The position numbers and the translations under genes were made by a program. This document shows positions 1,383-32,000 of a stretch of DNA of 32,000 nucleotides, in pieces. Within the stretch, counting starts at the first letter, position 1. Each line of letters opens with the position of its first letter. A model generated the notes under the pieces. The model did not search any database. It saw only the letters and a list, made by a program, of their open reading frames with translations, and had not been told where the DNA came from. This stretch comes from Candidatus Saccharimonadota bacterium (GTDB lineage Bacteria > Patescibacteriota > Saccharimonadia > Saccharimonadales > UBA4665): assembly GCA_002952755.1 (NCBI GenBank), contig CP025011.1, forward strand, positions 1,110,001 to 1,142,000. Direction: 5' to 3'.

Positions 1383-2307
1383 ACAATCGTTCGTCGGAAT
1401 CGTAGTACTAGTTTCTGTTTTTGGACTCGCATCCAGCCGGCAAGCAGCAGCTGCCACATCACCCGGCATCACAGTTACGCCTGCCACCTTTAGACTTGAG
1501 CTTAAGCACGGCCAGATTCAAAACCAAACAAGTTTTACGTTGACTAATGGCTATACATCCAGCATTGCGCTCCACTTCTCCTTCAAAACTTCGCCGAACA
1601 ACGTATCGTCAGACAGTAATGCTGACCCTGCAGGCCAGCTGTCCATCGCTACTCCTGATATCACCATCCAACCACACGACTCGATCACCCAAACAGTTAC
1701 CCTCAGCGACAGTCGGCTACTTGCTCCAGGGAGTCAACTAGTGGATTTAGTGGTATCTGAAGTATCGCCAGGTACCAGGGCCATCAGTACGGTCCCGAGT
1801 ATCCGCTTGCCGGTCGTTATCATCAAAGATGACGGTGCTTTTACAAGGCTTACCGCCACAACCTTACCAATTGGCGGTATCCGCACAGGCTTACCGCGCG
1901 CCTTAAGCGTTACCATTCGCAATACGGGCAATGTCGTAACTGCCCCGCACGGCGCTGCGATTATTACCGACGGGGCAGGAAACGAGGTGAGCAAAGGAGT
2001 GCTTAATAGCAACTCGCAGGCGCTCGCCCCAGGCGCAAGTGTAGCCTACACGATTCCGCTCACACAACTTGCACCTTCCAGACTGCTCGGGAAGTACCAG
2101 GTAAGCCTCTCGTATGGACTTGGGGGCGGACTGGGCGTCCAGCTGGTCCGTGCGCATTTCTTTTACATCGGCTGGCAGCACATTACTGGGGCTGTCCTGG
2201 TTTTCATACTTTTATATGCCGGCATACGGACGCTCCTCTACATTCGCTCTCAGCCTAATGCAGCACATCGTGGGAAGAAATCGATATCAGCGGCGAGGGC
2301 ACAATGA
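1369..2307 (+). CDS. Paralogous-architecture secreted surface protein (signal peptide, beta-rich body, C-terminal TM anchor plus basic tail)
   Basis: GTG start at 1369 overlaps the upstream gene by 14 nt. Signal-like IVVLVSVFGLASSRQAAAA. C-terminal TM AVLVFILLYAGIRTLLY followed by HRGKK. Confidence 0.7.
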   Translation: MGINKQSFVGIVVLVSVFGLASSRQAAAATSPGITVTPATFRLELKHGQIQNQTSFTLTNGYTSSIALHFSFKTSPNNVSSDSNADPAGQLSIATPDITIQPHDSITQTVTLSDSRLLAPGSQLVDLVVSEVSPGTRAISTVPSIRLPVVIIKDDGAFTRLTATTLPIGGIRTGLPRALSVTIRNTGNVVTAPHGAAIITDGAGNEVSKGVLNSNSQALAPGASVAYTIPLTQLAPSRLLGKYQVSLSYGLGGGLGVQLVRAHFFYIGWQHITGAVLVFILLYAGIRTLLYIRSQPNAAHRGKKSISAARAQ

Positions 2308-4553
2308 AAAAGGCAAACATAACATTGTTTGTACTGGGTCTGTCACTCATGGGCGGGCTCTTTTCGGTGCATCACGCAGGCGCTGCCATAAATCGGCAGC
2401 TCAGCTTCCAAGGCAAGCTCACCAATAGCGACGGCACTAACGTAACCGACGGCACCTATAGCATCCGTTTTCGGATCTATACCGATCCAACCGCCGACGC
2501 CGGCAACACGTGCAGCGCTAACACCTGCAAATGGGAAGAAACACAGGCTAGTGTGACGGTCAGCGGCGGTCTCTTCCAGGTGAATCTTGGAAGTGTAACG
2601 CCGCTGCCAGGGAGCGTCGACTTTAACAGTGCCGCATTGTATCTAGGGGTGAAGGTGGGGTCGGACAGCGAAATGACGCCGCGCATTCAGCTTACGGCTG
2701 CGCCTTACTCCCTGAACGCCGACATGCTGGATGGACTGGACAGTACAAACTTCGTGCAACTATCGCCAGGTTCGCAACAGACCGGCGCCATTAACATCTC
2801 GGGTGGCATTACCTCTGGAGCTGTGAATGGGCTCACGCTTGCTCAGGCTGCCGACGGCTTTACCCTGGCCGGCGGCACAACCTCGCGCACGTTGACCGTG
2901 CAAGGCGCCAATATCACCATTGGTAGCACTATTCAGCCTACCAACAGCGGCACACTCAGTATCCAGAGCAGCGGAGCAAACGCACTCAATCTCGATACTG
3001 GTGGGGCAGCGGCCATTAATATTGGTGTGAACGGTACGAGTGTCAATACCATCACTATCGGCAATAGCACGAGCAACCCCAACATATCGCTAGCGGGGGG
3101 CGGCACACTTAGCACACCTACGGGTGCAGCCTCAATTAACGGTAATACTACGATTACCGGCACTAAAACGCTTACTGTCGCCGGTGGACTAACGACGCTT
3201 GGGGCCGGTCTTACCTTCAGCGGGACCACCGCCCAAACGATCACGGGGCCGAGTACCGGAGGACTCACGGTGAACGTTGCATCTGGCCCCTTGAGCCTAT
3301 CGACTACGACTGCTGGCGCACTAGCCATTACTTCTGCTGGAGCGCTCTCCCTCACTGGCGCCAGCCCATCCACCTGGGATATCGGCAGCAATCTCTTATC
3401 CTTACAAACCACAGGCAATGGGGGAATTACCACAGGGACCGGCCTCCTGACTCAAGGTGGCAATGTTACATTTTCGGGTACCACAGCACGAACTCTGACC
3501 GGGCCGAGTACTGGAGGACTCACGGTGAACGTTGCAAGCGGACCACTCACACTCTCCACGACAACGTCAGGCACACTAGCAATCAACTCAGCCGGTGCAG
3601 CAAACATCAGCGCTGCAGCTGCCTCCACCTGGGATATCGGCAGCAACACACTTTCTTTGCAAACAACCAATAACGGGGCGGTTACTACTGGGAGTGGACT
3701 CTGGACCGAAGGCGGCAACCTGACGTTTAGCGGTACCGCTGCACGTACTATAACCGGGCCAGGAACGGGGGGACTTACGATCAACGTCACCAGCGGCCCA
3801 TTAACGCTTTCAACGACCACTTCCGGGACATTAACCATCCAGGGGAGTGGCGGGGTGGCGATAACCAGTGGCGGCAATGTCACTATTGGTGCGGTTGACG
3901 GCACCGCTACACTACTTGTGCTCGACACGAAGAATAGTACCGGCGACCCAACCGAAGCAGATGGCGGTATGTACTACAACTCCTCAAACAACCGCTTCCG
4001 TTGCGGCCAAAATGGCACTTGGCTAAACTGCATCGGCGGCACCATGACTTCCAACACTACAGCTTCGTCGGCAGTCAATACCTGCACTACAGCCTGCAGT
4101 GCCTTTACCACCACTTCGGCCTTCCCGGCTAACTTCTGCGTACCCGGCCGCGTCTTTCATATTGTTGCTAACGGCGTATACAGCACGGCAGCAGCAGCAA
4201 CCCTGGCGATGGGCGTCTATGTCGGCACCAACGCCACCACTAAGGCATCTGATACGCTCATCGGTGCAGCATCGGGAGCGCTGAGCTCGGGCGCTCTAGT
4301 TACCAACCAGGGCTGGAGCATCGATTTCTATATATCCTGTTTTACAACTGGTACGAGCGGTACGGTAAATGGTCAGGGCGTTTTTAGCATGGCCACTGCT
4401 GCTACAACGACACTTACCAGTCGTATGTATCTCAGCACCAACACGACCATCAACACGACCACCGCCCAAACGATCTATCTTTTCCCAGCATGGGGCACAT
4501 CTGCCGCAGGCAATACTGCAACTGTGCAGCAATTTATTGTCACAGCGCTTTAG
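2304..4553 (+). CDS. Large secreted repeat protein, tail-fibre-like or beta-helical surface fibre/adhesin candidate
   Basis: The ATG overlaps the upstream stop (ATGA), suggesting translational coupling. It has a signal peptide. N-terminal motifs (QLSFQGKL..., SLNADMLDGLDSTNF, GGMYYNSSNNRFRCGQNGTW) resemble those I recall from tail-fibre-like surface proteins. The centre is Gly/Thr-rich with three ~85-aa repeats. Confidence 0.8.
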   Translation: MKKANITLFVLGLSLMGGLFSVHHAGAAINRQLSFQGKLTNSDGTNVTDGTYSIRFRIYTDPTADAGNTCSANTCKWEETQASVTVSGGLFQVNLGSVTPLPGSVDFNSAALYLGVKVGSDSEMTPRIQLTAAPYSLNADMLDGLDSTNFVQLSPGSQQTGAINISGGITSGAVNGLTLAQAADGFTLAGGTTSRTLTVQGANITIGSTIQPTNSGTLSIQSSGANALNLDTGGAAAINIGVNGTSVNTITIGNSTSNPNISLAGGGTLSTPTGAASINGNTTITGTKTLTVAGGLTTLGAGLTFSGTTAQTITGPSTGGLTVNVASGPLSLSTTTAGALAITSAGALSLTGASPSTWDIGSNLLSLQTTGNGGITTGTGLLTQGGNVTFSGTTARTLTGPSTGGLTVNVASGPLTLSTTTSGTLAINSAGAANISAAAASTWDIGSNTLSLQTTNNGAVTTGSGLWTEGGNLTFSGTAARTITGPGTGGLTINVTSGPLTLSTTTSGTLTIQGSGGVAITSGGNVTIGAVDGTATLLVLDTKNSTGDPTEADGGMYYNSSNNRFRCGQNGTWLNCIGGTMTSNTTASSAVNTCTTACSAFTTTSAFPANFCVPGRVFHIVANGVYSTAAAATLAMGVYVGTNATTKASDTLIGAASGALSSGALVTNQGWSIDFYISCFTTGTSGTVNGQGVFSMATAATTTLTSRMYLSTNTTINTTTAQTIYLFPAWGTSAAGNTATVQQFIVTAL
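3186..3880 (+). repeat. Intragenic tandem repeat, period 255 bp (85 aa), two full units plus a partial third
   Basis: Units begin at aa 295 (GLTTLGAGLTFSGTTAQTITGPSTGGLTVNVASGPLSLSTTT...), aa 380 (GLLTQGGNVTFSGTTARTLTGPSTGGLTVNVASGPLTLSTTT...) and aa 465 (GLWTEGGNLTFSGTAARTITGPGTGGLTINVTSGPLTLSTTT...). Similarity is also visible at the nucleotide level. Confidence 0.85.
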
Positions 4554-4595: not shown

Positions 4596-4703
4596 GAACG
4601 ACCATACCCTCTTCGAAAAATAGAGCGTTACACGCAGGCCGACCTCAGGTCGGTCTGGTTGCACTACGCCTGACTCTATTTTTCGAAGAGGGTATGGTCG
4701 TTC
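4596..4703 (-). repeat. Hairpin element copy 1 (conserved core in reverse orientation, 26-bp copy-specific perfect arms)
   Basis: Left arm gaacgaccataccctcttcgaaaaatagag is the exact reverse complement of the right arm. The core lies at 4622-4677. The copy sits between the convergent 3' ends of 2304..4553 and 4714..5652. Confidence 0.9.
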
Positions 4704-4713
4704 ACACCGCTAC

Positions 4714-5652
4714 TTATTGTTGCGAGACGAAATCGTAGACCTCTTTAGAGACATCAGCGATAAAACTATTCGCTTGGTCTTCCGGTAAGCCGACCATCAC
4801 ACACAACAAGTACGGGCGCTTGGGTATGTACACAATCCCACAATCGCTCTCCGACCACGCAGCATTAAATACACCAATTTTATGCGCAACGGTAAGCTTG
4901 GGCGGCAGATTCTGAGGGATGCGATTTGTTGCTGTCGATTTGGCCAGGTAGCTCAGCAGCTCTTGTGAATCACTTTTCTCCAGATAGGAAGAGAAATAGA
5001 GCCCTTTGAGCACCGAAGCGTACGAGCGGGCGTTGATCACCGCCTGGCCATTCTGCTCATTCTGGTCAATATCCAACCGAGCGAGCGACTGCTCGTCATA
5101 CGTCAACATGTCTTTGGTGTGATCGAATATAACATGCGTAGCAGTGTTATCGGACTGCTCAAGCGCATATTGCGCTGCCTGGCGAAGCGTCAATGTAAAA
5201 CCAGCGCCTTTTTTATAGAGGTCGCCATACGCATCGTCCAGCTCATCGGACGTTACGCTTACCGTTTGATCAAGATGAATCCGGCCCAATTCGGCAGCCT
5301 TATACAGATTCATGACAAGCGGCACCTTTATGAGCGAAGCAGCTACTAGTTCCTGGTCGGCCCCGATACGGATAGACGTACCATCCGGCAGATACTCAAA
5401 ATAAAAACTCTTCTGCACCGTAAGGGCGTCAAATTTGCTTTGGAGCTGTTTACGTAAAGGAACAAAATTGATCAAAATATCATTTTGAGGATCGCCTAAA
5501 ATATTAGCTGCCAGCAAAGGCAAATGCCGCCGGGAGGAGATTTGGGGAGGAGCGGGGCGGTCTTTGATAAACCAGCCAAGATTGCCCAGCAGAAGCAGCA
5601 CGCAAAGAGGTGCCAATATCTGCGCCCCCGTACGCTGTTTGATTTGTTTCAT
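4714..5652 (-). CDS. Class A beta-lactamase-fold serine hydrolase (penicillin-binding-like), membrane-anchored or secreted
   Basis: SxxK (ASLIK), SDN (EQSDNTA) and a KTG-like motif (HKIG). The ORF track starts at TTG 5691. I prefer ATG 5652 (MKQIKQRTG... followed by a hydrophobic anchor). Confidence 0.75.
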   Translation of the reverse strand: MKQIKQRTGAQILAPLCVLLLLGNLGWFIKDRPAPPQISSRRHLPLLAANILGDPQNDILINFVPLRKQLQSKFDALTVQKSFYFEYLPDGTSIRIGADQELVAASLIKVPLVMNLYKAAELGRIHLDQTVSVTSDELDDAYGDLYKKGAGFTLTLRQAAQYALEQSDNTATHVIFDHTKDMLTYDEQSLARLDIDQNEQNGQAVINARSYASVLKGLYFSSYLEKSDSQELLSYLAKSTATNRIPQNLPPKLTVAHKIGVFNAAWSESDCGIVYIPKRPYLLCVMVGLPEDQANSFIADVSKEVYDFVSQQ

Positions 5653-5693
5653 CCTATTGGTAGTGTAGGGGGTGTAGCAGAGTTCTGGCAAGC

Positions 5694-6960: not shown

Positions 6961-7959
6961 ATGAATCGACGCGCAACCGCTGCACACGCCTGGAGAGTTA
7001 TGGACGGGGAGGCTTACTATCAAACATTGATACATGCTATTCCCCTCGCTCAAAAACGCATTACTATTGCTAGTATGCTCTTGCTTGCCGAGAAAAGGGT
7101 GGGTCACATACTAGCCTTGCTAGAACAAGCGATCGAACGCGGCGTATCCGTTACTTTATTATTCGATAATGGCGCTCTTCGGTCGCATTTTATCTACCAA
7201 ATCGATGAAGGCTCAACTCGTAAAACAGTATTGCGTGACACCTTTGCGACACTTGAGACGCTTGCTGCCAAAGGTGCTACAGTTTATCCCTTCAGCAAGT
7301 CACGTCTGCATCCGTACCGCGGCAGATGCCACGTCAAGATAACTATTCTCGACGATACTGTATATTCCTTTGGCGGTATAAATATGATGGATGGCGGCTT
7401 TAGAAGTACGGATTTCATGCTGTCTCAAGTATATCCAGCAGCAGCCAATATACTTACCGACCTGGTCGAACAAATTGGCACCCAGGGCCCGCCCTTACTT
7501 AATCGAGATCCATCGATTGCACAGGGGAGTATTTTGTTTGATGGCGGAGAGCCACATCATTCCATTATCTATGAGCGAGCCTGTGAACTCACCTTGCAGG
7601 CCAAGCACGTCACCTTTGTATCGCAAATGACGCCGAGCGGCAGGTTAGGGCAATTACTCAGCAAAACCGATGCAACGTGCTACTTTAACCGTCCGGAACA
7701 AATGACCGCCCCCCAATCATGGGGTCAGATATTCGACCAGCAACGTTACCGAATTACAAATAGCTATACGCGCGCCGAATACATACACGCCAAATGTATG
7801 CTCTTCGAGTTACCAAGCGGCCAGCACGTCGTGTTAACTGGCTCAAACAATTTCAGTTACCGCGGCGTAGCGTATGGCACACAAGAGATTGCACTCTGCA
7901 GTACCGATCCCCGCTTATACGAGAGCCTCGATGAGTTCATACGGAAAACAATTGGTTAA
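6961..7959 (+). CDS. Phospholipase D superfamily protein with two HKD-type motifs
   Basis: HVKITILD (HxKxxxxD) and HAKCMLFE..GSNN (second HKD-like motif). Confidence 0.8.
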   Translation: MNRRATAAHAWRVMDGEAYYQTLIHAIPLAQKRITIASMLLLAEKRVGHILALLEQAIERGVSVTLLFDNGALRSHFIYQIDEGSTRKTVLRDTFATLETLAAKGATVYPFSKSRLHPYRGRCHVKITILDDTVYSFGGINMMDGGFRSTDFMLSQVYPAAANILTDLVEQIGTQGPPLLNRDPSIAQGSILFDGGEPHHSIIYERACELTLQAKHVTFVSQMTPSGRLGQLLSKTDATCYFNRPEQMTAPQSWGQIFDQQRYRITNSYTRAEYIHAKCMLFELPSGQHVVLTGSNNFSYRGVAYGTQEIALCSTDPRLYESLDEFIRKTIG

Positions 7960-7966
7960 AACCATC

Positions 7967-8317
7967 CTATATGAGGGCGCCGCGGCGCACATACGCCATC
8001 AGGAGCAGATCCCCAGAGAATTGACGCCAACGACCGAGAAGCATGTTTCGTCGCTCGCGGCGCACTTTGGGGTTGCGCTCAAAACGGATCGCTCGGCCAA
8101 TCGCCCATTCGCCCATAGCCAGAGAAGCAAGCAAGCCCGCTCGGCTATGACGAGCCGTCTCCTGGATATCAACTCTTTCCTTACGGCGACGCTTACGAGC
8201 CCGTTCGGCGGCGAGTGCGCGCTCTAAGTTGTATTGTCTCAATGCGAGTTCGTTATACACAGGAGGCTGAGGAAATATGGCCTCTCCCGACGGCGTAACG
8301 ATCGGTTGTCGCTCCAT
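7967..8317 (-). CDS. Hypothetical protein, Arg-rich
   Basis: A strong Shine-Dalgarno sequence (AAAGGAGG) lies 5 nt upstream of the ATG on the minus strand. This ORF is preferred over the overlapping plus-strand ORF 7874..8227. Confidence 0.6.
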   Translation of the reverse strand: MERQPIVTPSGEAIFPQPPVYNELALRQYNLERALAAERARKRRRKERVDIQETARHSRAGLLASLAMGEWAIGRAIRFERNPKVRRERRNMLLGRWRQFSGDLLLMAYVRRGALI

Positions 8318-8336: not shown

Positions 8337-8510
8337 TTATTTTTTAGGTACTTTGCCTCCAGCCTCCCGGGCTTCTGAGAGTCCGATCGCAACAGCCTGC
8401 TTTGGGTTGGTCACCTTCTTACCTGAGCGTCCGCTCTTTAGAGTACCGTGCTTCATCTCGTGCATGGCTTTTTCAACTTTGGCTGATGCTTTTGGTCCGT
8501 ATTGATTCAT
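8337..8510 (-). CDS. Small conserved protein (57 aa), resembles the DUF6496 family of small basic proteins
   Basis: Not in the ORF track because it is under 60 aa. Translation: MNQYGPKASAKVEKAMHEMKHGTLKSGRSGKKVTNPKQAVAIGLSEAREAGGKVPKK*. GGAGG lies 7 nt upstream of the ATG. The family call is from memory of the ...MHE.K.GTLKSG.SGKKV..RKQAIAIGLSEAR... pattern. Confidence 0.7.
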   Translation of the reverse strand: MNQYGPKASAKVEKAMHEMKHGTLKSGRSGKKVTNPKQAVAIGLSEAREAGGKVPKK

Positions 8511-8549: not shown

Positions 8550-8600
8550 ATTTGGATGTGAGTGCGCAGTAAGCTATTTCACCGGGTGCCCAATAAGTAC

Positions 8601-8710
8601 TACTAGTCCGTATTCCTATGCCCAAGTAGAGTCAGGCGTAGTGCAACCAGACCAGCGCAAGCTGGTCTGCGTGAGAACGCTCTACTTGGGCATAGGAATA
8701 CGGACTAGTA
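8601..8710 (+). repeat. Hairpin element copy 2 (core forward, 27-bp perfect arms)
   Basis: Arms tactagtccgtattcctatgcccaagtagag / ctctacttgggcataggaatacggactagta. The core lies at 8628-8683. The apical stem CAGACCAGC-GCAA-GCTGGTCTG is perfect. The right arm overlaps the stop codon and last codon of the pilin-like gene. Confidence 0.9.
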
Positions 8711-9169
8711 AGTGCGCGTGATGCTAATCTTCACATGGCCTTCGGCATGCGGGGCTTCGACGGTAACCGTACGGCCAGAAGCCCGCAACCCATACCCAGA
8801 GAGGTACAGCCCTCCACTATCAGCACAGGTAGTAGCACTTAGATCCACGCCACCGACGGGATCTAAGGGCATCTCTTTTAGATAGGTTGGTATTAAGATT
8901 TTACACAAATCAAAATTGGTACTCGTTACCGAGCCGATTACTGCATTGGCCGTCGGCAAGCCAGCCGGCAAACTCCCATTGGCGGCCACGTACCGATTAA
9001 ACGCCTGCGCAATCGCCGCAATGTCAGCCCAGCGATTACCATTATTGCGCTCCACCTGATAGTTCTTAGGATGCAATAAAAATGCGGATAAAAATGCTAA
9101 TCCACAGATAAAAAAACTAACAACGAGTAGCTCCAATAGCGTAAATCCTCGCTGACTATGCCTATACAT
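8705..9169 (-). CDS. Type IV pilin-like (prepilin-type N-terminal cleavage/methylation domain) protein
   Basis: Class III signal: MYRHSQRG|FTLLELLVV plus a hydrophobic helix. The track ORF extends to 9307. The short basic leader argues for ATG 9169. Confidence 0.75.
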   Translation of the reverse strand: MYRHSQRGFTLLELLVVSFFICGLAFLSAFLLHPKNYQVERNNGNRWADIAAIAQAFNRYVAANGSLPAGLPTANAVIGSVTSTNFDLCKILIPTYLKEMPLDPVGGVDLSATTCADSGGLYLSGYGLRASGRTVTVEAPHAEGHVKISITRTY

Positions 9170-9215
9170 AGCTAAAGGGTAGCATATCTGTCGTAAGCCA
9201 GGGTAGAATAGGCTC

Positions 9216-9755
9216 ATGAGCACCCCAAATGCCAGTATCGAATATGAGCTTACTTTTTTAGCCAAACATGTACCAAACGAAATACACAATACGCTCCCTG
9301 AACGCATGGTAGATATCTACCTTCCCGAAAATGTAGAAATTCACCCTGTCCTGCGCCTCCGTAAGCGAGCAGGCAACTACGAAATTACTAAAAAAACAAT
9401 CCTAAACGGCACCGACTCATCCGAAATGCGGGAGCAAACAATCCCGCTGACCCAACTTGAATTTGAAGAGCTCGCCAGCGGGCATCACCGCCTGGTCGAA
9501 AAGGATCGCTATAAAGTAATGCTCGGAGGCCGCCCGGCCGAGGTGGACATTTTTAGCGGTAAGCTGGAAGGATTGGTACTTATCGACTTTGAATTTCTAA
9601 ATAGTGTCGACAAAGCAGCATTCCAGCCGCCGGATTGCTGTCTTGCCGAGGTGACACAAGAAGTTGCGGTAGCCGGCGGTCATTTGGCCGGTAAATCGTA
9701 TGATGATATCGACGAAATACTGCAGCGCTTTCAATATCGGCGCCTGTTCTTATAA
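9216..9755 (+). CDS. CYTH-domain (triphosphate tunnel metalloenzyme) protein
   Basis: An N-terminal IEYELTFL motif (ExExK-like) and the overall CYTH-like pattern. TAGAAT lies 6 nt upstream of the ATG. Confidence 0.65.
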   Translation: MSTPNASIEYELTFLAKHVPNEIHNTLPERMVDIYLPENVEIHPVLRLRKRAGNYEITKKTILNGTDSSEMREQTIPLTQLEFEELASGHHRLVEKDRYKVMLGGRPAEVDIFSGKLEGLVLIDFEFLNSVDKAAFQPPDCCLAEVTQEVAVAGGHLAGKSYDDIDEILQRFQYRRLFL

Positions 9756-10832: not shown

Positions 10833-12341
10833 CTAGAAATATTTATTACCCTCGAGCACCAAGGGCGACAACACGCTACGAACGCTGTTATTAAGTGTCA
10901 CAATCGGACGGCTCGGCCAATCCCAACTGCTATCGCTACGCGTAATAAAACCGATAACACCACCCCCTTGCAGGAAGCATGCTACAGCCAACCCTGCTAT
11001 CACTGGCTTAACGTTGGGCCAGAGACGAAGCGCCAGGTTCAGCCCCCGGCCAGCTACCACACCCAGCGGCAATAGTACCGGTAATAGGTAGCGCCCATTG
11101 ACTGCCACCGGCTGTCCTGTCTCCAGATACTGGGAAAAATTATCGGCCCATACGATGGTAATATACAGCACGCTCATTCCCGTAAGGAAGATCAACAAAG
11201 GGCGCTTGTTGAATACTTTACGGGCATACAACAAAGTAGCTATCAACGCGCACACCCCAAAACAAATGGCTGCGGCACTGGGCAACGGAGAAGGAGGGTA
11301 ATTCAGAAAACCACTAGCCGGGCCGTTGATCATAAAGAAAAGCCGGTAGTGCATACCCTGCAGCCAAAGCCAGCTATAGCTTAACGGATTGGCTGATACG
11401 CTTTCCTTGTTTTGGGTATAGATGTAATTACGGGCCCAGGGCCCATACGACTGACAGTCGCCAGGGGTAAGCACTGTATCACAGGCTGGGACAGGGGTGT
11501 GGTAGGCGGACAAATTCATACCATAGCGTTGCACGAACAGTATGCTGCTCACCAGAAGAAATACTATCAACCCGATTTTCGTAAGCATAGATAATGCACC
11601 ATAACCTTGCCGTAGCCGTGAGCGCAAAAGCCCCTGCCGCCAGAAATTGCGCGCAAAGATAACAACTAGGAAGCATGTGGCCGCTGCCGCCATCGGCAAA
11701 AAGGCATACTTGACGAGACTACCAAGCAGACAGAGGCATACAAAATAAGTAAACGCCTTCAGATCGATCTGTTGTTTTTGAAAACCGTCGTATAACTTAA
11801 AGGTGAGGAGGCAGAGACCGGCGACGACTGGCATAAGTAAATTATCATAGTTGATTTGTCCGGCTAGCAACGGCACAATAGGGATGAGTACAAATAGCGC
11901 CAGTAGGGCGTTCGCAAGGCCTCGCGAAGTGCCCGCCTTGCGCATCACTTTTACAAATAACCACAATCCCAGCGTGAAAAGAACGATATTAATACATCTT
12001 AGGGCGATAATCTGTACCGCCTGCTTGCCGGATAGTATCGAGATTATTCGATAAGGAAAGCTCATCAGCCAGTGATATAGGTACGACGGGTCACGATTAA
12101 GCGCGCCATACTTGCCGTTACCGATGCCGGCATCGGACAAAAAAGGGATCCAATGATGTGCGTATATTTTGATGATACCGAAATGAAAATCCTCATCGAA
12201 TGCCATCGGATACACGGCAGAACAGGCTACCCAGGCAGCCTCAAAAACAAAAAATCCCAATAGTATATGGGTACATCGACGTGATCTGAATACTTGATTT
12301 ATCTTCTCAATAATACGCTGCATGGAATACTTACCGCTCAT
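10833..12341 (-). CDS. Polytopic membrane protein, GT-C fold glycosyltransferase candidate (ArnT/PMT-like)
   Basis: About 12 hydrophobic segments. An acidic DED motif follows TM1 (AFDEDFHF). It is adjacent to the GT2 gene. An alternative start exists at ATG 12323. Confidence 0.7.
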   Translation of the reverse strand: MSGKYSMQRIIEKINQVFRSRRCTHILLGFFVFEAAWVACSAVYPMAFDEDFHFGIIKIYAHHWIPFLSDAGIGNGKYGALNRDPSYLYHWLMSFPYRIISILSGKQAVQIIALRCINIVLFTLGLWLFVKVMRKAGTSRGLANALLALFVLIPIVPLLAGQINYDNLLMPVVAGLCLLTFKLYDGFQKQQIDLKAFTYFVCLCLLGSLVKYAFLPMAAAATCFLVVIFARNFWRQGLLRSRLRQGYGALSMLTKIGLIVFLLVSSILFVQRYGMNLSAYHTPVPACDTVLTPGDCQSYGPWARNYIYTQNKESVSANPLSYSWLWLQGMHYRLFFMINGPASGFLNYPPSPLPSAAAICFGVCALIATLLYARKVFNKRPLLIFLTGMSVLYITIVWADNFSQYLETGQPVAVNGRYLLPVLLPLGVVAGRGLNLALRLWPNVKPVIAGLAVACFLQGGGVIGFITRSDSSWDWPSRPIVTLNNSVRSVLSPLVLEGNKYF

Positions 12342-12389: not shown

Positions 12390-12500
12390 TGCCAGAACAA
12401 ACAGAACTGCTCTCAGTAGAGTCAAGCGTAGTGCAGCCAGACCGACGTAAGTCGGCCTGCGCCTAACGCTCTACTGGGAGCAGTTCTGTTTGTTCTGGCA
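12390..12500 (+). repeat. Hairpin element copy 3 (core forward, 28-bp arms with one T:G position)
   Basis: Arms tgccagaacaaacagaactgctctcagtagag / ctctactgggagcagttctgtttgttctggca. The only non-Watson-Crick position is T12413:G12477. The core lies at 12418-12472. The copy lies between the divergent starts 12341(-) and 12540(+). Confidence 0.9.
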
Positions 12501-13447: not shown

Positions 13448-13548
13448 GCACTCTCCCAATGTTCTCCAAAAGAGTCAGGCGTAGTGCAGCCAGACCGACG
13501 TAAGTCGGCCTGCGCGTAACGCTCTTTTGGAGAACATTGGGAGAGTGC
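13448..13548 (+). repeat. Hairpin element copy 4 (core forward, 23-bp perfect arms)
   Basis: Arms gcactctcccaatgttctccaaaagag / ctcttttggagaacattgggagagtgc. The core lies at 13471-13525 and differs from the copy 3 core at 2 positions. Confidence 0.9.
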
Positions 13549-25519: not shown

Positions 25520-25571
25520 CATCGCCGTCCTATTCGGTCCTGCAGATGCAGGCACGAATACGACGGCGATG
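25520..25571. other. Long imperfect hairpin abutting or overlapping the tRNA-Leu 3' end
   Basis: catcgccgtcctattcg ... cgaatacgacggcgatg forms 17-bp arms with 1 mismatch, around an inner palindrome cctgca-ga-tgcagg. It is unrelated in sequence to the six-copy element. Confidence 0.6.
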
Positions 25572-25656
25572 GTGGGCGAGGAGGGAATCGAACCCTCACG
25601 AACTTGCGTTCACAGGATTTTGAGTCCAGCGCGTCTACCAATTCCGCCACCCGCCC
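25570..25656 (-). tRNA. tRNA-Leu (anticodon CAA), long variable arm, CCA encoded
   Basis: Reverse complement GGGCGGG-TG-GCG-GAATTGGTAGA-CGC-G-CTGGA-CTCAAAA-TCCTG-...-GAGGG-TTCGATT-CCCTC-CTCGCCC-A-CCA. It aligns with the E. coli tRNA-Leu(CAA) layout as I remember it. There is one U:U mismatch in the anticodon stem. Confidence 0.8.
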
Positions 25657-27108: not shown

Positions 27109-27117
27109 TCAGACACA

Positions 27118-27228
27118 CCAATACCGCCTCCGCCTCTGTTTTAGTAGAGTCAAGCGTAGTGCAGCCAGACCAGCGTAAGCTGGCCTGCGGGAAACGCTCT
27201 ACTAAAACAGAGGCGGAGGCGGTATTGG
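27118..27228 (+). repeat. Hairpin element copy 5 (core forward, 28-bp perfect arms)
   Basis: Arms ccaataccgcctccgcctctgttttagtagag / ctctactaaaacagaggcggaggcggtattgg. The core lies at 27146-27200. The copy starts 9 nt after the sortase stop and ends 2 nt before the PEGA gene stop. Confidence 0.9.
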
Positions 27229-27230
27229 AA

Positions 27231-28694
27231 TTATTTTACCTGGAGAGACGTTACGGAAAGATTGTTCTGGCTAGTGAGATTGTAATAAGTATGATAATTC
27301 GGGGTAAAGAAGGGTAGAAACGACGGATTGGCGGAGCTTAGCGTCTGCATATTTGCACCGTCAAAATCGAACACAACCAGATGTCCGCCAGAGACGTAGG
27401 TAAGGTGATATCCATCCATCCATGAAGCTGCAACTTGCGGGGCATCGAGTGGTAGTTTAGCCTGATAGGCATAGCCCTTATCCGTTTCGGCGTCATATAC
27501 CGCAAAATGGTCACTACTCTCAGCGATAGCAAAACGAGCATTGGGTGAAAAACCAACGTAAGTTGGGTTGGCAACCTTGAGAATCTGCACAGGGACGAGT
27601 ACTGATTTAGCGTCATCCTTTAACTGCGCGAGCGGGTCCTGATAGACATACATCTTATCTTCGTTAGCAGCTCCGGCTACTACATATGGCGTGCCCTTAT
27701 AGCGCTCAAGCGCGAGCAGGTACGTTGTTCCGGCAGGCACTTCGCGTAGTGTGTACGCCGTATCCGTATTCTGGCGCATCCTAAGGAGTACCTTGCCAGT
27801 TGGGGCACGGTCCGTTGTGGCGTACAGCATTGTGTCGCCATCACTATCAAAGGCTAACACTTGATCGAGATAGGCCTGAGGAGTGGGTTTCTTGAGCGTT
27901 GCGGTAAACAGTTCGCCACTATGTTGGTCATAGGCAAAATACTGATCATAGTTATGGCCACGAAGCTGCATTTTGGTAGGAGTGAACCCAAGCAGCACCG
28001 ACAAATTCTGCGATGATTCCGGTGCTTGGCGGTCGAACAAGACATACTCACTGCCGCTGTCGGCACCTTTTTGATAACTCCGCTTTAGCAGCACGTGCCG
28101 GTTATCGCCTGCCCACTCGACTGGCTGCCAACTTGTCGTGGTACTACCTGCCGTCAGGACATCAGCGGGGATTGTTAGTGCCTTGGGTTCAGGTTTGCTG
28201 GCGTTCAGATCATACAGATCGATGTCGTCGGAATTAGAGACGCCAACGAGCAGCCAACGACGATCAGAGCTCTGGGTCGCCAGCGAAGGAACTGCTACAT
28301 ACTGCTTAGTAGAGGTAGTCACCAGTTTTGTTGGGAAAAGAAAGGGATAGTCAAAACGCTCAACATACCCACCTTCGACCGTTATAGCCCGTTTCCAGTT
28401 ACGATAGCCGCTGTGTTCGATTTCAACCGTGTACTGTCCGGCAGGAATAGTCACACGGTCATTGGTTTTGTTTTTATACCGCTGTCCGTTTAAAAAGATG
28501 CCAGCGCCAGATGGCTGCGATGATAAGAAGACTAGTCCATTCTGAAAGACTTGGCCCTTTTTGTTAATGCCATACCCATACGCCTGATACAGTAAAACGG
28601 TGGTTGCAAGTACCACAGCAAGGCCAATAAGCGCGTAGCCAATGGCTAAGCGTATAGCGTGCTTTTTTTGTTTTTGGGGATCAAAAAAATCCAT
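27231..28694 (-). CDS. PEGA-domain membrane-anchored protein with a large beta-rich extracellular region
   Basis: N-terminal TM helix. PEGA-like segment SSQPSGAGIFLNGQ...IPAGQYTVEIEHSGYRNWKRAITV. Confidence 0.8.
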   Translation of the reverse strand: MDFFDPQKQKKHAIRLAIGYALIGLAVVLATTVLLYQAYGYGINKKGQVFQNGLVFLSSQPSGAGIFLNGQRYKNKTNDRVTIPAGQYTVEIEHSGYRNWKRAITVEGGYVERFDYPFLFPTKLVTTSTKQYVAVPSLATQSSDRRWLLVGVSNSDDIDLYDLNASKPEPKALTIPADVLTAGSTTTSWQPVEWAGDNRHVLLKRSYQKGADSGSEYVLFDRQAPESSQNLSVLLGFTPTKMQLRGHNYDQYFAYDQHSGELFTATLKKPTPQAYLDQVLAFDSDGDTMLYATTDRAPTGKVLLRMRQNTDTAYTLREVPAGTTYLLALERYKGTPYVVAGAANEDKMYVYQDPLAQLKDDAKSVLVPVQILKVANPTYVGFSPNARFAIAESSDHFAVYDAETDKGYAYQAKLPLDAPQVAASWMDGYHLTYVSGGHLVVFDFDGANMQTLSSANPSFLPFFTPNYHTYYNLTSQNNLSVTSLQVK

Positions 28695-28905
28695 AACGAA
28701 TCATTCTATTATATGCCACGATGCCCCTCTTTAGGCAAGAGGTTTCGCAAGCGATCTATACCGTTCATGGGGTGGATCATTCTGCGCAGGCTAGATAAAA
28801 CTTTCATGAGACCATTACCCCTTCGGACACTTGCGCTTCACAGCATGAGCAATGTACGATATAAACAACTTACGCTTTAAGCGCTTGTAGAGGGTAATAA
28901 AAACG

Positions 28906-30066
28906 GTGAGCGAGAATACGATAGAACTAAACGGGAAGCGCTACGATGCGGTCACGGGTGCCTATTTGGGTAAAAGCAGCGCCGAAGTAGTACTGCCAGC
29001 GCTAGGCCTCTCCAAAAAAAGGAGCCAGACTATCGATGGCTTTATCCGCCCAGCACACCGTGACGTGCATCCCACAACCATAGCGAAACCCACACACAAA
29101 ACCGCTACAACGCATGCCCAGGATCACCCCAAGGCAAAACCTCGCAGCGTTTCTGGTATAGTTCGTGCCCCAGGGGCCACACATCGCAAGGCACACCAAC
29201 CAGAACATGCCACAACATTGATGCGCACTACGGTACACAAGCCAAAGGCGACACCCAAGCCCGCTATCAAAGCACAAAAACCGGCCGAAGTAAAAATAGC
29301 CGCCCGGCCAACTGCTGTGCTGGCACACAAGCAATCGGTCTCTAAGGTGGATCCGTCTCGTTTAGAGCGCTCGCAGCATGTGGCCAGGCACCAAGCAGTA
29401 CGGCGTTTTTATGCAACACAGCCCGCGGCTCTAGGCGTAGGCAACAGCACAAAAACGCAGCATATTCCCTTACCAATTATTCCGGTGAAAAATGCGCCGC
29501 CGCACCATGCCAGCACATCGCATCGCGAGATCCACCCCAAGCCCGCCGATATATTCGAATCAGCTATTACGCACGCCACCAGTCACAAACAGCCTAAGCA
29601 GCGTTATCGCAAACATCATAGCCGCCTCGTGAACACCATGGCTGCAGTGTCTGCTTTTGTGATACTTGGCGGTTTTATTACTTACCTCAATATGCCCAAT
29701 ATTGAACTGCATATTGCCTCAGCCCAAGCCGGCTTTCATGCCTCACTTCCGGGCTTCAGGCCCACAGGCTACGCTAGGAGCGGCCATATCGTGCATGCTG
29801 GTGGCACAATTAGCATGCGCTTTACCTCTGGAGACAGCAATTACACGATCACTCAGCAGGCTTCTGATTGGAACAGCCAGGCACTGCTCGACAATACGCT
29901 CGCTTTGAGCGGCGCCCACCAAACAGTCCAAAAAAACGGTGAAACAATCTACATCTACAATAAGGGCGCCAGCGCTGCATGGGTAAATAACGGCATACGC
30001 TATGACATGAGCGGCAACGCCAGCCTCAGCAGCAGCGACATCACGTCCATCGCCACCAGCTTATAG
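28906..30066 (+). CDS. Hypothetical single-pass membrane protein (long basic N-terminal region, TM, C-terminal extracellular domain possibly DUF4367-like)
   Basis: GTG start. TM segment AAVSAFVILGGFITYL. The N-terminal half is Lys/His/Pro-rich. The C-terminal domain assignment is tentative. Confidence 0.65.
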   Translation: MSENTIELNGKRYDAVTGAYLGKSSAEVVLPALGLSKKRSQTIDGFIRPAHRDVHPTTIAKPTHKTATTHAQDHPKAKPRSVSGIVRAPGATHRKAHQPEHATTLMRTTVHKPKATPKPAIKAQKPAEVKIAARPTAVLAHKQSVSKVDPSRLERSQHVARHQAVRRFYATQPAALGVGNSTKTQHIPLPIIPVKNAPPHHASTSHREIHPKPADIFESAITHATSHKQPKQRYRKHHSRLVNTMAAVSAFVILGGFITYLNMPNIELHIASAQAGFHASLPGFRPTGYARSGHIVHAGGTISMRFTSGDSNYTITQQASDWNSQALLDNTLALSGAHQTVQKNGETIYIYNKGASAAWVNNGIRYDMSGNASLSSSDITSIATSL

Positions 30067-30120
30067 CGAGTAACCTCTAGCGATCGTGTCACCTCAGTTC
30101 CCCTAGAGGGCATTTTCGGC

Positions 30121-30126
30121 TATAAT
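30121..30126 (+). promoter_or_regulatory. TATAAT -10 hexamer 7 nt upstream of the gltX ATG (implies a leaderless or near-leaderless mRNA)
   Basis: An exact TATAAT followed by caccctc and then ATG at 30134. There is no SD in between. Confidence 0.4.
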
Positions 30127-30133
30127 CACCCTC

Positions 30134-31561
30134 ATGAAACCAGCCCGCACCCGATTTGCTCCCAGCCCTACTGGCTACCTCCACGTTGGCGGTGTCCGAA
30201 CGGCTTTATTTGCCTGGCTTTTAGCAAAACAAAGCAAAGGGCAGTTTATCTTACGGCTGGAGGATACTGATAAAGCACGCGAAGTGCAAGGTTCCGAGCG
30301 GCACATTATAGATAGCCTGCATTGGCTCGGCTTGCAGTGGGACGAAGGGGTGGATATTGGTGGTCCCTATGCGCCCTACAAACAAAGTGAACGCTTATCA
30401 ATATACAAGGAGTGGGGTGAAAAATTAGTGGCCAAAGGAAGGGCATATGCCGACCCCTACACTCAAGCAGAAGTCGAAACCTTTAGGCAACAGGCTAAAG
30501 ATAGCAAACAACCGTTCTTGTTCCGCAACCACCGTCCAGAAAACCCACCAATATGGGACGGCACCCAGCCTTTACGCTTCAAGTCCGACCCAAAAGCCTA
30601 TACCTGGCATGACGCCGTCATGGGAGAATTATCTGCAGGAGAAGAGGCGATCGACGATTTTATCCTCATAAAATCAGATGGTTACCCCACTTATAACTTT
30701 TGCCACATTATTGATGATCTACTCATGAACTGCACCCATGTCATTCGTTCGCAGGAGTTCGTATCGAGTATACCGCGTTTTCTTAATCTCTACGAAGCAC
30801 TTGAAATAGAGCGACCCATATTAGCCACTCTGCCTGTAGTACTGGGGCCCGACGGCAAGAAAAAATTATCCAAACGCGACGGAGCTAAAGATATCTTGGA
30901 CTACGCACGTGAAGGCTATCTGCCAGAAGCGATGATGAATTTTATGGCCACTTTGGGCTGGAATGATGGAACTGAGCAAGAAATCTTTAGCGCCCAAGAG
31001 CTGATTGATACATTCCAGCTTGATCGCGTACAGCGGGGCGGTGCTAAGTTTGACGAGCAGCGCCTACTATGGATGAATGGCATGCATATGAGGGCCTTAT
31101 CGATCGATGATGTGGCCACTCGCGCCCAGACCTTTTGGCCACCAGAAGCCGCCAGTTACACCGACGACTACAAAAAACGTATCCTCAGGCTCGTTCAGGA
31201 GCGGCTAAAGTATTTTGCCGAACTACCTGCGCTCACCAGCTTCTTCTTCCAGGATTTACCAATTAATCCGAGTTTATGGACCGAGAACAAACAACTTAAA
31301 AAACTGAACGCCGGTGAATTAAAAAACCTACTTAATCTAGCCCGTAACACGCTTGCCGAATGCGACTTTTCGGTTACTTGTCTCACTAACCACTTGAACG
31401 ATTTATTGGAAAAAACACAGCAAAAGCCAGCGGTTTTGTTCAGCCTCGTCCGTATTGCCACCACCCAGGCGCCAGCTAGCCCAGCGCTAGCGGAAACGCT
31501 TGCCGTTCTTGGCAGAGAAGTTGTCCTGCGTCGTATCGACGCCATGCTACCTACATTGTAG
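30134..31561 (+). CDS. gltX: Glutamyl-tRNA synthetase
   Basis: RFAPSPTGYLHVGGVRTALF (HIGH-type) and KLSKRD (KMSKS-type). The length is typical of bacterial GluRS. Confidence 0.92.
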   Translation: MKPARTRFAPSPTGYLHVGGVRTALFAWLLAKQSKGQFILRLEDTDKAREVQGSERHIIDSLHWLGLQWDEGVDIGGPYAPYKQSERLSIYKEWGEKLVAKGRAYADPYTQAEVETFRQQAKDSKQPFLFRNHRPENPPIWDGTQPLRFKSDPKAYTWHDAVMGELSAGEEAIDDFILIKSDGYPTYNFCHIIDDLLMNCTHVIRSQEFVSSIPRFLNLYEALEIERPILATLPVVLGPDGKKKLSKRDGAKDILDYAREGYLPEAMMNFMATLGWNDGTEQEIFSAQELIDTFQLDRVQRGGAKFDEQRLLWMNGMHMRALSIDDVATRAQTFWPPEAASYTDDYKKRILRLVQERLKYFAELPALTSFFFQDLPINPSLWTENKQLKKLNAGELKNLLNLARNTLAECDFSVTCLTNHLNDLLEKTQQKPAVLFSLVRIATTQAPASPALAETLAVLGREVVLRRIDAMLPTL

Positions 31562-31621
31562 CCAATTGCCTCCTATCTTTCGCCATTGCCGTCATGCTGG
31601 CCCTGCATCCAGAGCTAGTTC

Positions 31622-31730
31622 TATCCTGATGGCAACCCCTCTTCAAGTAGAGCGTTTCGCGCAGGCCAGCTTACGCTGGTCTGGCTGCACTACGCTTGAC
31701 TCTACTTGAAGAGGGGTTGCCATCAGGATA
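31622..31730 (-). repeat. Hairpin element copy 6 (core reverse, 27-bp perfect arms)
   Basis: Arms tatcctgatggcaacccctcttcaagtagag / ctctacttgaagaggggttgccatcaggata. The core lies at 31649-31703 and, reverse-complemented, differs from the copy 5 core at 1 position. Confidence 0.9.
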
Positions 31731-31769
31731 TCAGTGTGTCTGAAAGCATAAGCTGATACAATAAGGCTC

Positions 31770-32000
31770 ATGATTGATGGCTTTCGTAAACGCCAGCCCG
31801 GTAAGTTCGTGCATCCTGCCGCACACCACGTTGCGTCGCATGCAGTTGTAAGTGACCATTCCAAAGCTGCCATACAATCACCCCAGACCGTCAGCCATAA
31901 CGACCAAGCTGCAGAGTCGGCAAGCGTCACTCCCAAGCCAAAAAAACGTTCTTTTAAAGAATGGCTGCGAGCGCGCACCAAAAAACAATGGATTATCTTT
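31770..32000 (+). CDS. 5' end of a CDS running off the window (hypothetical; basic N-terminus)
   Basis: ATG at 31770 and open to the window end (MIDGFRKRQPGKFVHPAAHH...KKRSFKEWLRARTKKQWIIF). TACAAT at 31757-31762 lies 7 nt upstream of the ATG. Preferred over the minus-strand ORF 31643..31981, which runs into the repeat. Confidence 0.5.
   Translation, partial: MIDGFRKRQPGKFVHPAAHHVASHAVVSDHSKAAIQSPQTVSHNDQAAESASVTPKPKKRSFKEWLRARTKKQWIIF

Follow-up and report, generated by a model that had tools for sequence, protein, structure and literature searches.

The stretch studied here, referred to as the window, comprises 32,000 nucleotides of a Candidatus Saccharimonadota bacterium (GenBank assembly GCA_002952755.1, contig CP025011.1, positions 1,110,001 to 1,142,000, forward strand) and carries a dispersed hairpin repeat whose arms differ from copy to copy. 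The question raised by this repeat, and in particular by its copy at 27118-27228, is how the arms can diverge freely between copies and yet stay paired within each of them. An earlier note, made from the sequence alone, had reported six copies with copy-specific, near-perfectly paired arms, and six hairpin copies of one element were recovered by a repeat search and by a separate scan. The answer favored here, with a probability of roughly 0.47, is that the element is a mobile hairpin repeat of soil Saccharimonadales resembling REP (repetitive extragenic palindromic) sequences, that its arms are borne by the element itself, and that these arms are both kept perfect and driven to diverge by quasi-palindrome template switching.

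The element is ~100-110 bp long and consists of a 47-48-nt spacer, the core, flanked by arms of 27-32 bp. The six copies are listed below, with the scores obtained in the covariance model search described further on.

4596-4703, core on the minus strand: copy c1, arms 4596-4625 and 4674-4703 (30 bp, perfect), core 4626-4673, 89.5 bits.
8601-8710, plus strand: copy c2, arms 8601-8631 and 8680-8710 (31 bp, perfect), core 8632-8679, 89.5 bits.
12390-12500, plus strand: copy c3, arms 12390-12421 and 12469-12500 (32 bp), core 12422-12468, 93.2 bits.
13448-13548, plus strand: copy c4, arms 13448-13474 and 13522-13548 (27 bp, perfect), core 13475-13521, 93.7 bits.
27118-27228, plus strand: copy c5, arms 27118-27149 and 27197-27228 (32 bp, perfect), core 27150-27196, 93.0 bits.
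31622-31730, minus strand: copy c6, arms 31622-31652 and 31700-31730 (31 bp, perfect), core 31653-31699, 98.5 bits.

The core was found to be asymmetric and near-identical among the copies, which gives each copy an orientation, and c1 and c6 are inverted relative to the others. The core pattern GCGTAGTGCARCCAGRCC..GGYCTGCG was matched six times in the window, compared with 0.00 matches expected in shuffled sequences, and the RNA fold z-scores of the six copies ranged from -10.9 to -13.8. In c2, pairing continues outward past a bulge, and in c6, a decayed outer palindrome reaches 31604-31748 (49 nt, 84%). A seventh copy was detected 4.9 kb upstream of the window start, where a Logan contig begins inside its core; the density is thus seven copies in ~37 kb, or about one per 5 kb in this genome. 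If this density held throughout, some 250-300 copies would be expected in the 1.45 Mb of the complete genome. Logan short-read contigs from other samples were 100% identical to the window and ended 30 nt into the arms. Because the arms were reproduced at 100% by these independent contigs, an assembly artifact was rejected. The repeats fragment assemblies made with k=31 and probably depress the contiguity of metagenome-assembled genomes in such lineages. In L005, L006 and L094, Logan unitigs compared with window 27199-31651 and the sequence upstream, the ends fall systematically either 30 nt into an arm or within the core that the copies share.

Pairing of the arms was close to complete. The full arms of c1 to c6 sum to 183 bp (30, 31, 32, 27, 32 and 31 bp) and contain a single non-Watson-Crick pair, a 5' T opposite a 3' G in c3. 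The earlier note had also given one mismatch, but in 159 bp, a figure that covers only the copy-specific part of the arms. A census of 16 elements in seven genomes, which included the relatives described below, gave approximately four mismatches in ~440 arm bp, all of transition type: 5'T·3'G in c3 and in the copy of contig L089, G·T in L009 and A·C in the first of two copies in L008 (L008A). G·T pairs made up less than 1% of the arm pairs. Four copies from the metagenome Ga0193726 (m1-m4) had perfect arms of 23-27 bp, and the L089 copy had 22-bp arms with one T·G. It had been proposed that a larger copy set might reveal a continuum of mismatched arms consistent with ordinary drift; no such continuum was found among the 16 elements.

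Without gaps, similarity between copies was confined to the inner part of the arms. Counted outward from the core, gapless arm identity started at 0.88 over positions 1-7, dropped to 0.27-0.39 over positions 8-22 and ended at 0.23 over positions 23-32. From base composition alone, 0.28 would be expected, a baseline reached beyond about position 22, and the outer arms of different copies showed 0.23-0.29. The description of the outer arms as unrelated, with an inner similarity that decays, was therefore accurate. When all arms were compared by blastn-short with the window and with 1.3 Mb of related loci, only self matches were obtained, which agrees with the earlier failure to find the arms elsewhere in the window and extends it to related DNA.

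When gaps were allowed, however, relatedness along a large part of the arm could be traced for several pairs. The arms of m2 and m4 were identical at ~17 of 24 positions with one indel, a value that none of 500 shuffles reached, and those of L008A and L008B at ~17 of 26 positions, again with one indel. Copies c1 and c6 have CCCTCTTC in common, together with outer matches across two indels, and the arms of c3 and of the L089 copy contain AACAGAACT at an equal distance from the core, although the loci and the genomes are different. In the homologous arm pairs, every substitution and every indel was mirrored in the partner arm. There is a continuum of relatedness among the arms, and the pairing is always intact.

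These mirrored differences bear on ordinary compensatory evolution, in which the elements would be structured-RNA genes or terminators with a selected long stem, restored stepwise and without a special DNA mechanism. The very stable folds, the core covariation accompanied by conserved non-canonical features typical of functional RNA, and the T-rich tract that on either strand follows a GC-rich core in every family, a feature of bidirectional intrinsic terminators, are consistent with this explanation. However, the usual G·U intermediates accounted for less than 1% of the ~440 arm pairs, and mirrored indels exist. A single mismatch in a 30-bp stem should be near-neutral, especially in a small-population symbiont; in addition, the orientation relative to neighboring genes is mixed, no Rfam family matches, and a generic terminator scan does not flag the elements. 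This explanation is considered unlikely, and the earlier argument that the pattern needs more than point mutation with slow compensation is supported by the ~4 mismatches in ~440 bp of the 16 elements. Since an RNA stem would tolerate wobble, yet G·T pairs are below 1%, the constraint appears to act at the level of DNA.

The base composition of the arms was also studied. The outer 5' arms contained G 49, C 116, A 83 and T 80 (G versus C, p = 2e-7), and G was rarer than C in the 5' arm of 13 of 13 family copies. Because a perfect palindrome reads alike on both strands, the term "5' arm" is strand-independent. The flanks read in the same sense contained G 125 and C 141, and arms and flanks differed significantly (Fisher p = 4e-4). 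Therefore, the arms are not samples of the local DNA.

In the mechanism proposed here, the arms would belong to the element and descend from ancestral arms, being neither made from the target nor acquired, and only their complementarity would be maintained. During replication, the nascent strand would synthesize the 5' arm and the core, fold back and copy its own 5' arm into the 3' arm, and any difference between the arms would be erased or mirrored in a single step. Such recopying, if frequent and less accurate than normal synthesis, would act as a mutator restricted to the arms, and neither the core nor the adjoining flanks would diverge nearly as fast as these. Polymerases form G·T mispairs more readily than A·C mispairs, and purine·purine more readily than pyrimidine·pyrimidine; as the 3' arm would always be the copy, fixed errors would therefore push the 5' arm toward C and away from G. 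Fold-back copying would account for the perfect Watson-Crick pairing, the near absence of G·U, the mirrored indels and the difference of the arms from the core, where an A·C mismatch is kept. In a toy simulation with a conventional mispair spectrum and arbitrary rates, in which the 3' arm was recopied from the 5' arm, the 5' arm reached the order C>T>A>G, and the residual mismatches were mainly 5'T·3'G, which is the type carried by c3 and the L089 copy; the observed order was C>A≈T>G, so that the agreement is one of sign only. Among the three mechanisms offered in the earlier note, that of one arm templating the other is best supported, by the mirrored differences, the near absence of G·U and a C>G skew of the expected sign.

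Template switching perfects quasi-palindromes in Escherichia coli (PMC7202029), can generate hairpins and maintain them, with compensatory changes of several bases (PMC8794818), and can homogenize and expand inverted-repeat arms (PMC13100816). In the Ripley model, exemplified by the E. coli quasi-palindrome hotspots, the process makes imperfect inverted repeats perfect at a single stroke, leaves mirrored multi-base changes and can lengthen the arms; it is the agent proposed for the present elements. However, quasi-palindrome template switching is known from single loci, mutation-accumulation data and comparative scans, and it has not been described as the lasting mode of evolution of an entire family of repeats, with a compositional footprint in the arms. 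A formal likeness also exists to large palindromes. In Y-chromosome palindromes and plastid inverted repeats, the arms are kept near-identical by arm-to-arm conversion around a unique spacer. Like the present arms, those of the human Y chromosome and of plastids diverge between lineages while remaining near-identical within each, with a unique central spacer; unlike them, they span kilobases to megabases and rely on homologous recombination, for which 27-32 bp is at or below the length usually needed.

Orthologous sites lacking the element were examined for the presence of either arm. The gene order sortase (forward), PEGA gene (reverse), p386 (forward), gltX (forward) and next gene is conserved in relatives. 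Copy c5 occupies the whole gap from the sortase stop (27108) to the stop of the PEGA gene (27231), and the orthologous convergent site in six relatives was an empty spacer of 31-36 nt. The site of c6 after gltX was likewise empty in six relatives (L012, L015, L068, L073, L077 and L093); there, the gltX stop nearly abuts the conserved promoter-like AAGCATAAGCTGnTACAAT. The sites of c3 and c4 were empty in L089 (56 and 50 nt), and that of c4 was also empty in L087. Conversely, the copy of L089 lies ~33 nt after a tRNA-Ser gene, in a flank that aligns with the window, where the element is lacking. Neither arm was present at any of these empty orthologous sites (those of c3, c4, c5 and c6 and the window site corresponding to the L089 copy). 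The alternative result anticipated for such sites, namely that the arms are simply part of a longer conserved element, was thus not obtained. The relatives with empty sites are only ~70% identical in gltX DNA and are too distant for a clean test of target-derived arms. A likeness between the L089 arm and the empty site in the window (GAACTA..TT.CC) was judged to be due to chance, the match to the c3 arm being stronger. The AAGCATAAGCTGnTACAAT block (window 31744-31776; also in L009, L012, L015, L068, L073, L077 and L093) is followed by ATGAT(T/A)GA(T/C)G and indicates where the gene downstream of gltX begins; its conservation extends across genomes whose gltX is only ~70% identical in nucleotide sequence.

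The empty sites speak to the second mechanism of the earlier note, in which the arms come from flanking DNA: a short mobile core would insert, and the adjacent DNA would be duplicated in inverted orientation by a template switch or fold-back repair, one arm thus pre-existing. Indeed, the outer arms are locus-specific and the inner ones shared, as if the element boundary lay inside the arm, and outward expansion of arms by template switching has been described elsewhere (PMC13100816). Moreover, if one arm of c5 were native, the ancestral spacer would have measured ~43 nt, near the 31-36 nt of the empty sites. On the other hand, neither arm was found at any empty site, including the alignable tRNA-Ser flank of L089; the C>G skew is present in the arms and not in the flanks (Fisher p = 4e-4); arms share sequence across loci and genomes; their length varies little; and the shared 9-mers described next lie outside the variable arm. 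An origin of the arms from the target is therefore disfavored by the absence of arms at empty sites, by the arm and flank compositions and by cross-locus sharing, and it is regarded as improbable.

The flanks of the copies were compared in the sense of the core, and two 9-mers were found close to the arms on their 5' side.

27109-27117, plus strand: TCAGACACA, directly 5' of the c5 arm and common to c6.
31735-31743, minus strand: TCAGACACA, 4 nt 5' of the c6 arm in the core sense.
4711-4719, minus strand: CAATAAGTA, 7 nt 5' of the c1 arm in the core sense, including the TAA stop of the gene 4714-5691(-).
8591-8599, plus strand: CAATAAGTA, 1 nt 5' of the c2 arm.

Each 9-mer occurs at only two places in the window, and the null probability of two pairs sharing at least 9 nt was 0.0003. 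By core subtype, c5 and c6, and likewise c1 and c2, are sister copies, and their outer arms are unrelated despite the shared 5' flanks. Since unrelated outer arms lie between a shared 9-mer and a conserved inner arm, it may be concluded that the arms change much faster than the sequence on both sides of them. Nothing comparable was found on the 3' side of the sister copies; a likeness of the c5 and c6 3' flanks (CTGGA) was rejected since it falls within the conserved C-terminal coding sequence of the PEGA gene.

The same bracketing would be expected if the arms were acquired or programmed segments displayed on a constant scaffold, the third mechanism of the earlier note, with an expressed 27-32-bp duplex processed, for example by RNase III, to guides against phage, host or self. 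In sister copies, the flank 9-mer, the inner arm and the core enclose an unrelated outer arm of similar length, and a duplex of 27-32 bp suits RNase III-type processing. Candidate phyla radiation (CPR) and parasitic bacteria also host unusual guide systems, such as TIGR-Tas (PMC12045711). Against acquisition, an exact search of IMG/VR with three outer arms gave no match, and neither did the window or the 1.3 Mb of related DNA; the copies are single, scattered in housekeeping gaps rather than arrayed, and have no associated genes; and the compositional bias and partial homology of the arms are unlike those of acquired spacers. Positive evidence for acquisition was thus not obtained, and this explanation is very improbable. 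The shared 9-mers and cores of sister copies with unrelated outer arms do favor it, and they leave room for an arm-specific turnover.

A bolder form of this idea is that the arms are actively renewed modules on a REP-like scaffold, rewritten by a dedicated mechanism and diced to guide RNAs or DNAs, the whole forming a dispersed hairpin guide repertoire; it is hardly probable. Like CRISPR and TIGR-Tas, the elements combine a constant scaffold with variable segments. In those systems, however, the units form tandem arrays beside effector genes, whereas here they are solitary, 1-14 kb apart, and the two variable segments of each unit complement one another exactly. TIGR, which is found in phage and parasitic bacteria, has 9-nt spacers A and B without covariation (PMC12045711). 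No cas or Tas-like genes were found among the open reading frames (ORFs) of the window.

The core was examined in an alignment of ten copies, the six of the window and the four of Ga0193726. The inner arm has the form ..A-rich..AGTAGAG, pairing with CTCTACT..T-rich, and is followed by a one-sided bulge of 5-6 nt, UCARG (GGUCCA in the metagenome copies). Next come a helix of 3-4 bp, GCG(U)/(A)CGC, and an internal loop containing an invariant GTAG. The core stem, ~11 bp long, carries a bulged C and an A·C mismatch that is conserved except in c2 (A-U) and m3 (G-C). The apical loop is variable; it is of the GNRA type in five window copies, and c1, whose core is of the A/U subtype, has CUGAG. The sequence GCGTAGTGCA was invariant in 11 copies from three genomes, with GTAG in the internal loop 5' of the 11-bp stem. 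RNAalifold revealed covariation at columns 30-57 (GC in five copies, AU in four and GG in one) and an apical stem that swaps GA/UC for AG/CU. Only about nine positions vary among the six window cores. It is on the core that sequence selection would act, for instance because an unseen enzyme recognizes it.

Several other interpretations of the core were considered. A small ORF in the core was rejected: the frame is not kept among copies, owing to indels in the apical and 3' internal loops. Readings as a group II intron domain V, a kink-turn or a loop-E motif found no support in Rfam or in the sequence. At Rfam gathering scores, only the two tRNAs of the window were reported and no family for the element; at E<=10, the sole match of the element was to mir-4874, whose gathering score is 70 compared with the 26 bits obtained, a generic long-hairpin match.

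The closest known relative of the core would be a GTAG-tagged REP sequence with a terminator-like centre, a resemblance rather than a demonstrated membership. GTAG-tagged REPs are imperfect hairpins in which a mismatch or bulge is required, with an unpaired GTAG on the 5' side and CT dinucleotides nearby, and they are recognized by RAYT/TnpA-REP proteins (PMC3733652, PMC8266576). As judged from published descriptions and not from a model, the present core likewise has an unpaired GTAG 5' of an imperfect palindrome. As with GTAG REPs and REPtrons, the elements are small, non-coding, high-copy intergenic hairpins lying mostly after convergent or co-directional genes. GTAG REP subfamilies, too, show complementary stem changes (PMC3733652, PMC8266576). 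However, a REP is only a hairpin of ~20-40 nt with a conserved stem sequence, whereas here the REP-like unit caps an extra perfect stem of 27-32 bp that is different in every copy. G·T pairs, common in REPs, are almost absent from these arms. In REPtrons, the genome carries a cognate RAYT gene, encoding a Y1 HUH transposase, which REPs usually flank. No RAYT or Y1_Tnp match was found among the 40 ORFs of the window, which represents 32 kb of a 1.45-Mb genome, or among 10 ORFs beside the Ga0193726 copies.

Other repeat classes were compared as well. With REPINs and MITEs, the elements share a size of ~100 bp, one long hairpin, dispersed intergenic location and lineage-specific copy number; in those classes, however, the arms (REP units or terminal inverted repeats) are conserved and the centre is variable, and here this is reversed. 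MITEs also have target-site duplications, of which none was found at the present copies. Integron attC sites have conserved RYYYAAC/GTTRRRY outer sites, an imperfect stem with extrahelical bases and a variable centre, and they lie at cassette boundaries. The elements differ from them in having non-conserved outer ends, perfect stems, a constant centre and housekeeping genes as neighbors. To our knowledge, the well-described bacterial hairpin repeats (REP, REPIN, MITE, Correia and ERIC) all conserve their arms.

The distribution of the family was then determined. A covariance model built from the ten aligned copies was searched in Saccharimonadales DNA and found one more member, in the JGI contig L089 (53.5 bits, E = 9e-11), whose apical stem is wholly different; L089 is the closest available relative, with 65% LPG-synthase identity. 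Besides L089, nothing was detected in 1.37 Mb from ~80 other Saccharimonadales genomes. The family is thus present in three Saccharimonadales lineages, those of the window genome, of the Ga0193726 organism (assigned by NusA) and of L089. It was absent from 21 kb of a relative of the Ga0193726 organism with 87% NusA identity and from the DNA examined of the relatives L092, L093 and L096. The strict core pattern gave no match in GTDB species representatives, none in IMG/VR and four in JGI metagenomes; because it fixed the apical stem, it was too strict and would miss variants such as L089. A pattern such as AGCGTAGTGCA..AACGC would be more relaxed. Judged by these sequence searches, the family is patchy and abundant only in particular lineages, like mobile repeats.

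The copies lie in housekeeping intergenic gaps, in either orientation and often a few bases from stop codons. Taken together, the six window copies and the four of Ga0193726 occupy four convergent sites (c1, c5, m2 and m4), five tandem sites and one divergent site. Copy c1 lies between the convergent genes 2304-4553(+) and 4714-5691(-), c3 between divergent genes and c4 between tandem genes, and the right arm of c2 contains the stop codon of the gene 8705-9307(-). The actual gene to the left of c2 is probably a lysine-rich ORF of 57 aa at 8337-8510(-) (MNQYGPKASAKVEKAMHEMKHGTLKSGRSGKK...); with this neighbor, c2 occupies a tandem-gene site, its core being antisense to transcription. No synteny was found between the Ga0193726 copies and the window. 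On the minus strand, the L089 copy (12080-12180) contains an open frame that enters from the contig end, crosses the right arm and the core and stops at a TAG in the left arm (33 codons); this frame, whose upstream part lies beyond the contig end, is probably due to chance (~20%).

The REP likeness and the patchy distribution would also fit regeneration at transposition, in which a single strand or half-element moves and the second arm is copied by fold-back at each birth, perfection then reflecting youth and the mode of birth. The core is REP-like, with GTAG 5' of an imperfect hairpin and CT dinucleotides beside it (PMC8266576, PMC3733652); the family is in high copy here and absent from 1.37 Mb of relatives and from the relative with 87% NusA identity; and all insertions are lineage-specific. 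Nevertheless, new copies should inherit the parental arms, yet sister copies with near-identical cores have unrelated outer arms. Moreover, no transposase or other associated gene was found in the window or beside the other copies, and neither target-site duplications nor flanking direct repeats were found at the copies. Regeneration at each birth is likewise judged unlikely.

A possible link to insertion sequences (IS) of the IS110 family, which target REP-like hairpins, was considered for the ORF 7874-8227(+) next to c2. Its match to Transposase_20 was marginal (22.4 bits against a cut-off of 21.3, E = 1.6e-4) and was not relied on. No stretch of this ORF passes alone, and it may be a decayed IS fragment or noise.

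The design is not limited to one core. In a fourth lineage, L008, two copies (1143-1274 and 11501-11627) of an unrelated element were found, with a core of ~75 nt that is ~88% identical between them and contains a nested hairpin of 19 bp resembling a canonical terminator. The L008 arms, of 26-28 bp, are copy-specific and self-complementary with one mismatch; both copies keep CAGGAG as their inner arm, and their 5' arms are again rich in C. A constant centre with copy-specific paired arms is thus a class comprising at least two unrelated core families. Perfect or near-perfect hairpins of 25-28 bp were located just downstream of gltX in L008 (11501-11627), L009 (10726-10848) and L011 (2311-2411), and a long one just upstream of gltX in L078 (3022-3150). 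Each of these gltX-flanking hairpins has a different core, and the position downstream of gltX is that of c6, which points to a hotspot of insertion or to repeated selection for a hairpin at this position. In addition, in L025 (5600-5721), L041 (5161-5275) and L063 (5763-5881), an orthologous tRNA gene is bracketed by inverted repeats of 22-24 bp, which extend the tRNA acceptor stem into the leader and trailer and resemble a long processing stem.

Different cores within long hairpins at one site could also be explained if the core were the mobile unit and homed to loops in long palindromes already present. Loops of hairpins or REPs are the targets of several IS families (PMC1525189), and long perfect hairpins with other cores do occur downstream of gltX in L008, L009 and L011. 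However, the window contains no long perfect palindrome without a core, the empty sites contain no palindrome, and the inner arms are conserved along with the core. Homing of the core is extremely improbable.

With regard to cellular function, within the very short intergenic gaps the elements may act or be tolerated as insulators or bidirectional terminators. They resemble bidirectional intrinsic terminators in having a GC-rich central hairpin with an A-tract on its 5' side and a T-tract on its 3' side, at gene ends, and true terminator hairpins are nested in the cores of L008 and L078. A clear T-tract was seen in c1, c4, m2-m4 and L089 and also within the cores of L008 and L078, whereas in c2, c3 and c5 it was weak or absent. 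Unlike the elements, however, terminators need no outer stem of 25 bp, and c3 lies between divergent genes. A generic terminator scan did not flag the elements and reported no more sites than in shuffled sequences.

Several observations weigh against maintenance of the arms by template switching. No conversion event was seen: all Logan, ENA and JGI contigs with identical proteins are 100% identical in DNA, as are the assemblies of this organism, and the next relatives have 65-78% protein identity (GltX 78%). The sample is small, with seven copies here and 16 elements in all, and several arm-arm alignments are individually weak, with p ~0.2 for the outer arms of L008A and L008B and p ~0.05 for c1 and c6. 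The narrow range of arm length (27-32 bp, and 23-27 bp in Ga0193726) is not explained by template switching alone, and the skew could reflect selection instead. In c1/c6 and c5/c6, the passage from similar inner arms to unrelated outer arms is abrupt, which agrees better with a replacement of the outer arm than with uniform hypermutation. Finally, another hairpin of the window (25520-25571, 25 bp with a 2-nt loop) keeps three mismatches (88%), so that perfection is not universal among palindromes in this genome. Given this hairpin, either the large stable core specifically promotes fold-back, or perfect pairing is linked to the way in which the element itself propagates. The hairpin lies immediately after a tRNA-Leu gene (25570-25656, minus strand).

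As for the genomic setting, the window encodes a sortase, a pilin-like protein, a PEGA protein and many unassigned proteins, and relatives of its GltX place it in an uncultured Candidatus Saccharimonadales (Saccharibacteria, CPR) genome. Its GC skew was negative in every 2-kb bin, and the cumulative skew fell steadily to -0.92. Since the skew is negative throughout, the window lies on one replichore, without origin or terminus.

A constant REP-like centre with fast-evolving and always perfect arms was not found described in the literature searched for such repeats. In this class, the centre is conserved, and the arms diverge freely yet stay perfectly paired. In practice, short-read assemblies of these CPR genomes are interrupted at the arms, and lineage-specific insertions are marked by the elements. 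The finding also bears on the origin and persistence of long RNA and DNA hairpins, including the precursors of regulatory hairpins. Should the minority reading of programmed arms hold, the elements would represent a guide system of a new kind, hosted by an epibiotic CPR bacterium. If the arms are instead maintained by template switching, the family would provide a natural many-copy readout of a replication process known mostly from single hotspots and statistical scans, and its rates, direction and error spectrum would be measurable from a single genome. Template switching would then act as both proofreader and mutator of a repeat family, leaving a measurable compositional footprint.

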